Below are positions 47,358 to 49,728 of a stretch of DNA of 64,000 nucleotides, piece by piece. Position 1 is the stretch's first letter; the number at the start of each line of letters is the position of its first letter. Source of the stretch: Methanothrix sp. (GTDB lineage: Archaea > Halobacteriota > Methanosarcinia > Methanotrichales > Methanotrichaceae). Both the position numbers and the translations under genes were made by a program. The stretch is from positions 2,336,001 to 2,400,000 of the forward strand of contig OY821645.1 of NCBI GenBank assembly GCA_963682135.1, written 5' to 3'. The notes under the pieces are model-generated. The model saw only the letters and a program-made list of their open reading frames with translations. It was not told where the DNA came from and did no database searches.

Positions 47358-47686
47358 TGAAAGGAAAGATCGTTGTAATCCCATTCCCTTTTACAGATTT
47401 GAGTTCAATTAAGCGTAGGCCAGCTCTTGTCCTTCATGAAACCAAATATGACATTGTTGTTGCCTACATCTCCTCTATCATGCCTTCGTCCATATCGCCG
47501 GAAGACGTCTCAATTCCCAAAACCCGGCCTTCTTTTGTTGGCACAGGGCTACTATCCGACTCAGTTATAATGCTGGATAAACTCGCAACTGTGGAGAAAT
47601 CCCTTATTGTACGCATTTTAGGCGAAGTGGATAACGACCTGAAGGCAGAGATTAACCCCAAACTTGCTGAATGCTATAGGCTCTGA
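47357..47686 (+). CDS. PemK/MazF-family toxin
   Basis: GKIVVIPFPFTDLSSIKRRPALV, GLLSDS, DKLAT. Confidence 0.92.
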   Translation: MKGKIVVIPFPFTDLSSIKRRPALVLHETKYDIVVAYISSIMPSSISPEDVSIPKTRPSFVGTGLLSDSVIMLDKLATVEKSLIVRILGEVDNDLKAEINPKLAECYRL

Positions 47687-47870
47687 GAAATCGAGCCCAT
47701 AAAATCGATTTTGAGCCGGATATCATTAATGGAGATGCTGGCTTGGCCAGTCATCAAGCCCCATCGCTCCGACATATATTTCCTCTCTCCTCCTTAATGG
47801 ATGGCGTTCTTTGAAGGAATAATAATGGGTCCGGCAATAAGTCTTTGATATGAAAATGATTCATATTTAC

Positions 47871-49103
47871 CTATGCAGTCGCCGCCTTTGTCACTGAATA
47901 TCCGGCCTTCTCAAGCGATCTAACCATCGATTGCTCTCTTCTTTTTGATGTTCTTTCATGAATGGCCTCTGCACCTATATCCTGATAAGGCTCAGATGTC
48001 TTGAGTACAAAGTAGATATCGATAAGCATACGATGCGCCAAAGCAACAAGAGTCTTCTTTTTGCCCTTCCTTCTGATGAGATTATGGTAGAAAGCATTAT
48101 ATGAGGTGTTCTTAGTTTTTGATGCAGACCATGCGGATTCAGTTAAGGCTCCCTTTAGAAAGGAATTACCTTTCTGCGTTTTTCCGTTCTTCTTCTTTCC
48201 TGCACTCTCGTTATTGCCAGGGCATACGCCCGCCCAAGAGGAAAGATGTGCTTCATCTGGAAACTGAGACATATCATTCCCAATTTCCGCCAATATTGCT
48301 GACGCATTAACTTCACTGATTCCTGGAATCGTTTGAATCAGCTTCGATTCCTTCTGAAAAGGGATCATCTTTTTCTCGATCTCCTCATCGAGTTTATTTA
48401 TTTGCTTGGTAAGATAGTCGATATTTTGTAGATGCATTTCTAAAAGGAACCTGTGATGATCGGTTAGCTTTCCGTTAAGGGCTTTTTCCAGGAGACCTAC
48501 CTTCTTCTTGAGTTTACCTTTAGCCATTTTTGAGATATCCTCTCTTGAAAGTCTGTCCTTTTCCAGCAGCGATCTGATCATAGCCAATGATGAGACTCCG
48601 TAGATCCTTGAGACGACTGAGCTAAGCTTGATATTGGCGGACTCCAATACCTTAACAAGTCGATTCTTCTCGGAGGTCATTATTCCAACAAACTTTCTTC
48701 GAGTGCGGTTGAGATCTCGTAGCTCTCTGATCTCTCTTGGCGGAATAAAGCTGTTAGGAAGCAATCCATATCTAAGCAGGTTGGCGATTCGCTTGCAGTC
48801 CATGATGTCGGTCTTCTTTCTAGGAATGGCTTTGAGGCGTTGCGCATTCGCGAGGACTATTTCGAACTGGCCTTCCATAACATTGAAGATTGGTTTCCAA
48901 TAGATTCCGGTGCTTTCCATACCAATCGTCGAAACTTCATATTTCTTTAGCCATGCCATTAGTTCTTCCAGATCTGAGGTCATAGTCGAGAATGTTCTAA
49001 TCTCGAATTTGGGAGTTTTATCAAAGGGTCCGTGGGCAATGCATACATCTACCTTCTTCTCGTGGACATCCATTCCGGCACAGCTTATTAGAATTGGCTC
49101 CAT
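47871..49103 (-). CDS. IS110 DEDD recombinase/transposase
   Basis: GMDVH, MESTG, KKTDIMD (DEDD); TIPGI, ESAGK (catalytic Ser); AAGGAG SD before MEPIL. Confidence 0.96.
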   Translation of the reverse strand: MEPILISCAGMDVHEKKVDVCIAHGPFDKTPKFEIRTFSTMTSDLEELMAWLKKYEVSTIGMESTGIYWKPIFNVMEGQFEIVLANAQRLKAIPRKKTDIMDCKRIANLLRYGLLPNSFIPPREIRELRDLNRTRRKFVGIMTSEKNRLVKVLESANIKLSSVVSRIYGVSSLAMIRSLLEKDRLSREDISKMAKGKLKKKVGLLEKALNGKLTDHHRFLLEMHLQNIDYLTKQINKLDEEIEKKMIPFQKESKLIQTIPGISEVNASAILAEIGNDMSQFPDEAHLSSWAGVCPGNNESAGKKKNGKTQKGNSFLKGALTESAWSASKTKNTSYNAFYHNLIRRKGKKKTLVALAHRMLIDIYFVLKTSEPYQDIGAEAIHERTSKRREQSMVRSLEKAGYSVTKAATA

Positions 49104-49109
49104 GATAAT

Positions 49110-49270
49110 TCTCCTTGAGACGGGCAAAGCAACATATGAGGTGTAAATTTGATACGCGTGCCTGACTAGGCGACATTCATGGGTTCTAAGAGTTGCTCAG
49201 GGCAGTTTCTTTTTCGGGGATATCAAAATCCTCCAGAAAAACGTCGCCCTTATTGCTGGTCTCATAATTT
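49110..49270 (-). ncRNA. Candidate IS110 bridge/seek RNA
   Basis: TATA-like element at 49285-49298; stems UGAGAC/GUCUCA and GGGCGACGUU/AAUGUCGCCU; 8-9 nt matches to donor and target junctions. Confidence 0.6.
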
Positions 49271-49418
49271 AAGAATTGTTGATCTTGAATAAATACTTAG
49301 AGCTTAGGGCACAATTTTCATACTCATGGGTGCCCAATCGGGCATGAAGGTTTCTTTGGTAGATCTTAAGATAAGAGAATCCATGTTATAAGCGTCTATG
49401 GTGAAGCAGATGATATGC

Positions 49419-49484
49419 TTAGAGAGCAGGTAAATTGACTCTTGCCTGAATGTCTCGCCATCTAATGCAGATGATTTCAGGCAA
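49419..49484 (-). pseudogene. Remnant of DUF3368/PIN partner gene
   Basis: TTG start overlapping the UPF0175 stop; LPEIIC...RVNLPAL*, only 21 codons. Confidence 0.5.
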
Positions 49485-49728
49485 GAGACGCCTCCGCCTT
49501 GAGGTCTTCTTCTGTCAGGCGAAATGTATCCACGCCATAGTTCGCCAGCCGGTTGAGGAAAAGCGTCCTTGGTATTCCTGCCAGTCTGGCCGCCGCTCCG
49601 GATGATAGCCTCCCCATTTCAAATAGCTTTGCGGCTGCTGCCAACCTCAGCTCCTTTCCCAATTCATCCGGGGACATCTTCAGGGCCAGCAAGGCATCAT
49701 CCGGGACTTGCAAGACTATCTCGCTCAT
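49477..49728 (-). CDS. UPF0175-family putative antitoxin
   Basis: ELRLAAAAKLFEMGRLSSGAAARLAG...F...GV; start reassigned to MSEIV. Confidence 0.9.
   Translation of the reverse strand: MSEIVLQVPDDALLALKMSPDELGKELRLAAAAKLFEMGRLSSGAAARLAGIPRTLFLNRLANYGVDTFRLTEEDLKAEASLA

Follow-up and report, generated by a model that had tools for sequence, protein, structure and literature searches.

A predicted two-loop guide RNA and an AAA core in an IS110-family insertion sequence of Methanothrix

Introduction

The 64,000-nucleotide (nt) stretch of Methanothrix sp. DNA analyzed here (the window; GenBank assembly GCA_963682135.1, contig OY821645.1, forward-strand positions 2,336,001 to 2,400,000) contains an insertion sequence (IS) of the IS110 family with a long non-coding left end. 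The question raised by this locus is whether that end encodes an RNA that guides the recombinase and, if so, which segments of the RNA read the target and which read the ends of the element. An earlier note, made from the letters of the window alone, had proposed such a bridge RNA and had assigned guide roles to several short segments around a CAAAGA core. Comparison with homologous copies makes it quite probable that this is an intact IS110-family insertion sequence whose recombinase is guided by an RNA of about 150 nt from its own left end, with a two-loop fold and an AAA core, and most of the guide segments picked there are reassigned or rejected as a result. The host genome is a single complete contig of 3.04 Mb, and all features of the element and its target described below are on the minus strand of the window.

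To our knowledge, published experiments on bridge RNAs have all been done with bacterial systems. Among the papers listed in literature searches, none was on a bridge RNA of Methanothrix or of any other archaeon, and none of the 10 listed for Methanothrix or Methanosaeta mentions IS110; the supplementary element and model tables of the papers cited here may include this family. A survey of diverse bridge-RNA folds reports, in the part of it cited here, 86 models and 32,190 loci (bioRxiv 10.64898/2026.10.21.760802).

Results

The recombinase and its relatives

The recombinase gene (47871-49103) is an intact open reading frame (ORF) of 410 aa with matches in Pfam and NCBIfam: PF01548 covers residues 9-156 (E 7.4e-23), PF02371 covers residues 254-339 (E 7.2e-23), and the score for NF033542, 'IS110 family RNA-guided transposase', is 267.2 bits (cut-off 140). 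With phmmer the protein aligns remotely to IS621 (8wt6, E 1.2e-13) and to ISCro4 chains, and the motifs GxD, xxE(S/A)TG, KTDxxD, and ES are retained in the IS621 alignment (D12, E63, D99, D102, and S300), at positions that we take to be the catalytic residues of IS621. By its sequence the element is therefore a member of the IS110 family with a recombinase of the RNA-guided type. A search of plasmid proteins returned 488 records, all of them less than 60% identical and named only 'IS110 family transposase'; a match on a Citrobacter plasmid is an unnamed IS110-family gene of 446 aa.

Relatives were collected with a scan of species genomes (11 loci) and a scan of metagenomes (75 loci). BLAST with the left end gave 70 matches, and the alignment comprises the 60 that span it completely; the right end gave 57 matches. 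Two further searches of 105 Methanotrichaceae genomes supplied additional copies and empty sites. The RNA alignment holds 45 distinct versions of 49266-49101 from close relatives.

Element boundaries and the AAA core

The insertion sequence proper spans 47847-49350 (1504 bp, CCTTCATG... to ...TTTCATATC), its limits being set by the points where 60 left and 30 right ends stop matching and by uninterrupted homologues of the target. Similarity among the 60 aligned left ends begins at ...AAAC-C(Y)TTCATG, and at the right it ends after ...TTTTCATATCAA, where 27 of the 30 distinct right junctions continue with A. The left copy of the AAA core (49351-49353) is part of an AAAC present in all 60 aligned left junctions, the right copy (47844-47846) appears as CATATC+AAA at the same 27 of 30 right junctions, and homologues with an empty site have a single AAA between the flanks. 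AAA is the sole sequence common to both junctions across the family. The CAAAGA that the earlier note took for the core can be traced to AAAG-AAAG in the target itself.

The four bases before the left AAA vary by lineage, and they could on that account belong either to the element or to the target. They are assigned to the target because three sources agree. Copies with the left junction AGCT-AAAC have only AAA in common between their junctions, and their right junctions lack AGCT; at the L008 site, all four uninterrupted homologues read left flank, single AAA, and right flank, with the four disputed bases included; and the copies of the window's own target repeat, described next, conform. The right flank at L008 is a repeat that is also present in other genomes. 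From these alignments the core is AAA, and the four upstream bases are target and not element. A first model, in which the four variable bases were part of the element and an RNA segment served as a right-donor guide, was tried with cores CA, CAA, and CAAA; it left no core shared by both junctions in most lineages and is contradicted by the empty sites.

The window copy lies inside a multi-copy intergenic repeat at ...CCAAAG-AAA-GACTTATT..., the right part of the interrupted repeat occupying 47692-47843 and the left part resuming at about 49354-49385. Among 20 uninterrupted copies of this repeat that were fetched (loci L122-L141), 14 read ...AAAG-AAA-GACTTATAGCC..., including the closest copy (92% identity), with whose upstream part the left flank of the window agrees at about 21 of 29 positions (counted by eye). 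Many copies of the right-flank repeat in Methanotrichaceae genomes start exactly at AAA. An orthologous empty site was not found for the window: relatives retain the left neighbour gene, but the ~100 nt directly preceding the element are missing from them and the right flank lies in another place, so the empty-site evidence is that of paralogous or homologous copies of the target repeat. The repeat, which has no Rfam match in the four copies searched, may be the natural landing pad of this guide variant. It ends in a GGAGG motif resembling a ribosome site, and in the window a 33-codon ORF follows.

Just inside the left end (49314-49343), the sequence contains a hairpin, GCCC-GATT-GGGC (49343-49332), and then TATGAAAAT (49322-49314), which forms a 9-bp inverted repeat with ATTTTCATA at 47857-47849. 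The placement of its two arms is asymmetric: one lies 29 bp in from the left end of the element, the other 2 bp in from the right end. The arms of the terminal hairpin vary in concert among homologues (judged by eye).

Fold and strand of the left-end RNA

The non-coding left end is 247 nt long (49350-49104), in line with the ~250 nt given by the earlier note, and contains an AT-rich, TATA-like box (49288-49296) that falls in a block conserved in homologues (AAGTATATATTC) and is centered about 28 nt upstream of the first paired RNA base; it is a putative promoter element, and a TATA-like element had been noticed here from the window alone. The predicted bridge or seek RNA (49116-49264) is delimited by a closing stem, P1 (UGAGA 49264-49260 / UCUCA 49120-49116), which the earlier note had also recognized, and the 3' end of the RNA at P1 adjoins an AAGGAG ribosome site (49116-49111). 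In the RNAalifold consensus of the 45 sequences, P1 encloses two elaborated loops. The target-binding loop (49199-49250) consists of P2 (AGGGC 49250-49246 / GCCCU 49203-49199) and the hairpin P3 (49235-49230 / 49219-49215) around internal loop 1, and the donor-binding loop (49127-49198) consists of P4 (GAGCAAC 49198-49192 / GUUGCUU 49133-49127) around loop 2 and the hairpin P5 (49174-49169 / 49162-49158).

The consensus fold has 32 pairs, and 98.1% of the cells are paired in the 45 sequences, compared with 33-51% when the partners are slid. The terminal pair of P4 is GC in 24 sequences, AU in 12, and GU in 9, and one pair of P2 switches from GC to AU in 3 sequences. Read on the recombinase strand, the 45 homologues give the 98.1% of standard pairs with 108 G:U cells, whereas the opposite strand gives 91.2%; the G:U cells identify the recombinase strand as the one that folds, as the earlier note had argued from the window. 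On this comparative evidence, the left end encodes a predicted leader RNA with a conserved two-loop fold. Rfam 15 yields only chance-level matches over 47500-49700 (E 2.8-9.1) and none in the RNA at 49104-49266 other than a 17.8-bit snoRNA-like match overlapping the start codon.

Two features of the earlier reading change in this consensus. Part of a proposed 10-bp stem, GGGCGACGUU/AAUGUCGCCU, survives, in that GGCGA/UCGCC is kept in relatives (73.6% of cells paired), but the full 10 bp are specific to this copy and cross a better-supported stem. The segment GUUGCUUUG, previously read as a guide for the opposite donor strand, is the 3' strand of P4 and pairs with GAGCAAC in the stem whose terminal pair alternates as described above.

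Target guides

Evidence that the RNA acts as a guide comes from the 3' side of loop 1 (49204-49214), which has the same sense as the left target plus core (AAAAAG-AAA-CU) and contains AAAGAAAC (49212-49205). In every copy the segment equivalent to 49214-49204 carries bases of the left flank followed by AAAC. Of 43 independent sites, which represent 13 different guide quartets, 42 have a flank identical to the guide in the 4 nt beside the core, and copies with identical RNA and differing flanks have these 4 nt in common. The fifth position matches at 30 of the 43 sites (expected fraction 0.30), and positions beyond it match at chance level. None of 100000 permutations reached the observed identity of guide and flank, the highest permuted count being 16. 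With the flank bases assigned to target DNA, the result amounts to target-guide covariation as Durrant et al. use the term in the passages cited here from PMC11208160. Across these independent sites, then, the 3' side of loop 1 is the left target guide. The earlier note was right that AAAGAAAC is a guide, although it reads the left target and core and not the donor in the opposite geometry. Alignment of homologous left ends had been named there as a check on whether guide segments co-vary with each copy's flanks, and the left target guide does so, at 42 of 43 sites and in 13 variants. Together with the NF033542 score (267 bits) and both Pfam domains, this bears out its broader proposal of an IS110-family RNA-guided recombinase with a guide RNA in the left end.

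A candidate right target guide, GACGUUUUUC (49236-49245), is located on the 5' side of loop 1. This side terminates in UUU and one further base, and in 27 of 30 copies that base can pair with the last base of the left target. Position RT1 is paired in 21 of 30 copies (expected 15.3) and RT3 in 19 of 30 (expected 12.2). In an overall permutation test, fractions 0.0088 and 0.0002 of 5000 shuffles equaled the observed value. When the right flank was scanned against all RNA columns in 20 copies, the signals were weak, and the best of them are in this same side of the loop. These signals hint that GACGUUUUUC may be the right target guide. The segment given that role in the earlier note, GCAAUAAG, is present in 10 of the 45 variants, and the copies that have it show unrelated right flanks.

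Donor guides

The segment CGUAUCAAA (49148-49156), on the 3' side of loop 2, corresponds in sense to the right end CATATC followed by AAA, with a single G:T wobble. The motif [CU][GA]UAUCAAA, equivalent to CATATC + AAA when G:T and U:G wobbles are allowed, is present in 45 of 45 RNA variants. Within the Methanothrix clade the right end is invariant, as is the donor guide, and covariation was therefore sought in more distant relatives. In all six diverged relatives (L068, L076, L072, L011, L162, and L163), the segment homologous to CGUAUCAAA matches over 8 nt the relative's own, different right end plus AAA (by eye), the right ends differing as ATATG, AGATG, GAATG, ATAC, and ACAG. This covariation across clades makes CGUAUCAAA the likely left donor guide, the role that the earlier note had given it.

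The 5' side of loop 2 (49173-49184, ACCCAUGAAUGU) contains ACCCAUGA (49184-49177), which repeats, in the same sense, the left-end segment 49331-49324. That segment corresponds to positions 20-27 of the left end, just past the conserved terminal DNA hairpin. Same-sense matches of 8-9 nt between loop 2 and the left end, at left-end positions 20-25, occur in the window and in four relatives of the clade with a downstream RNA (see below), where the sequence is different (CACACAGG); each is equaled in 6-26 of 2000 shuffles. In three other relatives the match is limited to 5-mers, at chance level. The ACCCAUGA repeat could possibly reflect a donor contact at a subterminal site.

The P3 hairpin loop (49220-49229) contains UUUGAUAU, which the earlier note had read as a further donor guide. 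This loop is variable, and UUUGAUAU is found in 10 of the 45 variants even though its supposed partner, the right end, does not vary, so it was rejected as a guide.

Relatives with a relocated RNA module

A covariance model made from the RNA alignment was run on 15 sources and matched the window, two Methanotrichaceae copies (L154 and L106), and seven more distant relatives. Five of these relatives, from metagenomes or genomes, have recombinases that are about 46% identical and carry the RNA directly downstream of the gene: L068 (1875-2052), L076 (1329-1500), L072 (1959-2133), L011 (2718-2837, Thermophagus), and L073 (1707-1833, truncated by the contig end). The downstream-RNA relatives nevertheless retain the start of the left end (CCTCCATG..., then the hairpin), which implies that the RNA module or the gene has switched places within the element. 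Two elements on Bacillota plasmids (L162 and L163, with 42-44% identical recombinases) have the RNA upstream of the gene. In L068, L076, L072, L011, L162, and L163, the homologue of the left target guide equals the copy's own left junction (by eye). Taken together, these alignments show AAA as the core throughout the wider family and an RNA module that has switched ends between clades.

The closest plasmid relative, L161 of an Alicyclobacillus fastidiosus plasmid (47% identical), has no covariance-model match. Upstream of 1201 it contains, by eye, segments equal to its left junction (ACATAAGAC) and right end (ACGGTAGA) that end in (A)GA and not AAA, which suggests that this lineage uses a different core.

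Copies and derivatives in Methanotrichaceae genomes

The left end was found in 15 of 105 Methanotrichaceae genomes, at one or two copies each. In the host genome, a 3' fragment (L002 1501-2089; G000:C1 about 2846166-2846754) is 96% identical to the element, has two small insertions in the gene, and borders on the 3' portion of a different transposase-like ORF; about 340 nt beyond it, the right end recurs alone as a 16-nt copy (TCATTTTCATATCAAA; L002 1145-1163). A mini-element of about 85 bp (L003 1465-1548, minus strand; G000:C1 about 2250940-2251023) preserves the outermost ~45 nt of the left end and ~15 nt of the right end. It contains the subterminal hairpin and a repeat like TATGAAAAT, both features of the inverted-repeat region being retained, and has neither RNA nor gene; from its structure it looks like a non-autonomous derivative needing RNA and recombinase in trans.

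A second repeat family (L108-L111; L008 2750-2800) is the target of the CATG guide variant and begins TTTCACATG-AAA-AACATC..., much like the right end of the element plus core (TTTCATATC-AAA). In L068, too, the left target and the right end are nearly identical in sequence, and mimicry of the donor end by targets may be a frequent feature of the element family. An 81% identical recombinase with a full left-end RNA is present at L009, on a 2850-base contig binned as a Dissulfurispiraceae bacterium; the contig was either misbinned or reflects transfer of the element into a bacterium.

Metatranscriptome contigs

In runs X2 and X3 (peat, one study), contigs of relatives that are 85-99% alike span the gene and extend through the left end as far as 49352-49356, and run X1 (wetland, another study) covers the left end in part. 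Some metatranscriptome contigs are mini-element-like forms that keep only the two ends. No contig with a circle junction was seen in four runs, where contigs cannot show absence.

Discussion

How the element would work can be sketched from these parts. The recombinase, which combines a DEDD RuvC-like domain with a serine-containing Tnp domain, would be guided by the element's own left-end RNA, which would be the 5' leader of the recombinase message or be cut from it and would fold as a closing stem with two internal loops. Loop 1 would read the target, its 3' side holding 5 nt of the left target plus AAA and pairing with the bottom strand, and loop 2 would read the joined element ends, its 3' side (CGUAUCAAA) corresponding to the right end plus AAA. 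Recombination within AAA would then insert the element after NNNNN-AAA and ahead of the right target, with a copy of AAA at either side. By analogy with the family, the RNA is expected to be made, to be bound by the recombinase, and to act via a circular intermediate.

IS621 is the best reference for this plan, as it is described in the passages cited here from PMC11208160 and in structures 8wt6-8wt9. The two systems have the same two protein domains with the same catalytic motifs, an RNA in a long left end upstream of the gene with a short right end, two internal RNA loops of which one serves the target and one the donor, left guides that are in top-strand sense and end in the core, a right-target guide complementary to the top strand that overlaps the core, and a core on both sides of the inserted element. 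The earlier description of the fold as unlike that of IS621 was thus overstated, and the difference is in the loop side of the bottom-strand guides, which are on the 5' loop sides in IS621 (PMC11208160) and on the 3' side of both predicted loops here (49214-49204 and 49156-49148). The core is a CT dinucleotide there and AAA here, the discriminating left-target stretch is only about 5 nt here, and no core-adjacent right-donor guide was found in the Methanothrix RNA. The likely promoter here is an internal archaeal TATA-like box, whereas that of IS621 is assembled across the joined ends, and the protein similarity to the Methanothrix recombinase is remote (E 1.2e-13).

Other features recall the IS1111-type elements with seekRNAs (ISEc11, ISPa11, and ISKpn4), as reported in the portion of PMC11187229 cited here. 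Along the RNA, the order of matches is the same, the complement of the top strand preceding that of the bottom strand; the 9-bp inverted repeat near the ends may correspond to the subterminal inverted repeats of 7-17 bp in the IS1111 group; and in the relatives that are about 46% identical the gene precedes the homologous RNA, the arrangement of IS1111 elements. The Methanothrix element differs in having its RNA upstream of the gene and its 9-bp inverted repeat placed asymmetrically, and exceptions with an upstream non-coding region are already known, for example ISMtsp17 (PMC11187229). The IS110 elements of the Bacillota plasmids Peribacillus simplex pSHB26 (L162) and Bacillus thuringiensis p81952 (L163) have 42-44% identical recombinases and covariance-model matches upstream of the gene, and carry left-target and left-donor guides that match their own junctions around an AAA core. 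They differ in their bacterial hosts, in weak model matches (28.7 and 15.6 bits), and in longer right ends, and they are annotated only as 'IS110 family transposase'.

The Methanothrix elements, the Bacillota plasmid elements, and those of uncultured bacteria may form a distinct bridge-RNA subfamily, a doubtful proposal in which four properties would have to hold jointly: both left (bottom-strand) guides on 3' loop sides; a trinucleotide core; recognition, in place of the usual core-adjacent right-donor guide, of a subterminal left-end segment that lies immediately beyond a DNA hairpin, some 20 nt from the end; and movement of the whole RNA module between left and right ends in lineages about 46% diverged.

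Several observations weigh against a guide RNA working in this way at this locus. No core-adjacent right-donor guide emerged when the variable positions of the left end were compared with all RNA columns in 46 distinct sequences, nothing rising more than 0.25 above expectation, and left-end positions 2-4 vary without a compensating change in the RNA. The left target guide has its one mismatch at L160. Structural covariation is thin because the aligned sequences are close relatives: only two pairs (one in P2 and one in P4) vary on both sides, a count that 337 of 500 shuffles reach. The RNA evidence consists of assembled metatranscriptome contigs of relatives, which give no start, end, or strand and may include DNA carry-over, and the genome has no sign of recent activity, with one full copy, one 3' fragment, and one mini-element. 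In the window alone, no guide match beats dinucleotide shuffles; among 2000 of these, runs as long or longer occur in 183 for CGUAUCAAA, 694 for the region of AAAGAAAC, and 415 for GCAAUAAG, so that only the comparative data separate signal from chance. The earlier note, whose coordinates for its short motifs are all correct, had itself cautioned that 8-mers can arise by chance.

The map drawn in that note differs from ours in running the element from AACCTTC to TTTCATAT around a CAAAGA core, with AAAGAAAC and UUUGAUAU reading the donor, GUUGCUUUG as right-donor guide, and GCAAUAAG as right-target guide. CAAAGA is indeed present at both junctions of the window copy, and 6 of the 20 target-repeat copies, more distant ones (about 79-80% identical), lack the extra AAAG and read ...CCC-AAAGAC..., as the empty site of that map would, which is a further point against the boundaries preferred here. 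No other lineage, however, has a shared hexamer at both junctions, the AGCT-AAAC copies have right junctions without AGCT, and the uninterrupted homologues of the L008 site (four of four) contain the bases that this map places inside the element; within the RNA, GUUGCUUUG is taken up by a covarying stem, and GCAAUAAG and UUUGAUAU are each kept in just 10 of 45 variants. The map has hardly any chance of being correct.

A different kind of explanation dispenses with a trans-acting guide RNA: the leader could be a cis-acting 5' untranslated region (UTR) affecting translation or stability of the recombinase message, or the flank match could operate at the level of DNA, in the way that IS200/IS605 elements use their single-strand guide sequences. 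The structure stops 2-3 nt before the ribosome-binding site and hence is part of the leader, the evidence for RNA so far includes no separate small RNA, and the discriminating stretch of 4-5 nt is reminiscent of the guide tetranucleotides of IS200/IS605. A purely regulatory 5' UTR, however, would leave unexplained why 13 guide variants follow the target flanks, and in the relatives that are about 46% identical the same structure is downstream of the gene, a position incompatible with a 5' UTR; the G:U pairs, for their part, indicate folding as a sense-strand RNA. Studied members of the protein family need RNA, according to the passages cited from PMC11208160 and PMC11187229. Both versions are very improbable.

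It is also unlikely, if less so, that the guide system is real in the family and the window copy is an inactive relic. One full copy in a complete 3.04-Mb genome, beside a truncated copy and a mini-element of about 85 bp, would fit a relic, as would the restriction of the left-end family to 15 of 105 family genomes at one or two copies each. The ORF is nevertheless intact with its catalytic motifs retained, all stems and both guides are intact, the left target guide matches the flank of the window copy itself, and a metagenome copy (L015), with a 99% identical protein and a 95.6% identical left end, is inserted at a different site. An intact, RNA-guided element with an AAA core is the reading that we favor.

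No new principle follows from this reading, given that NCBI already names the protein family 'RNA-guided transposase' and that diverse bridge-RNA folds have already been surveyed. The element and its relatives indicate that the loop side carrying each guide, and the element end carrying the RNA, can differ between fairly close relatives, which matters for automatic guide calling. If the distinct subfamily were real, its 13 naturally reprogrammed target guides would be the first comparative proof of the activity of such a system in archaea. The 13 guide variants at 43 independent sites amount to a natural experiment on RNA-guided target choice in an archaeal lineage. We know of no genetic tools for Methanothrix, and a compact recombinase evidently working in these cells would be a possible starting point for them.

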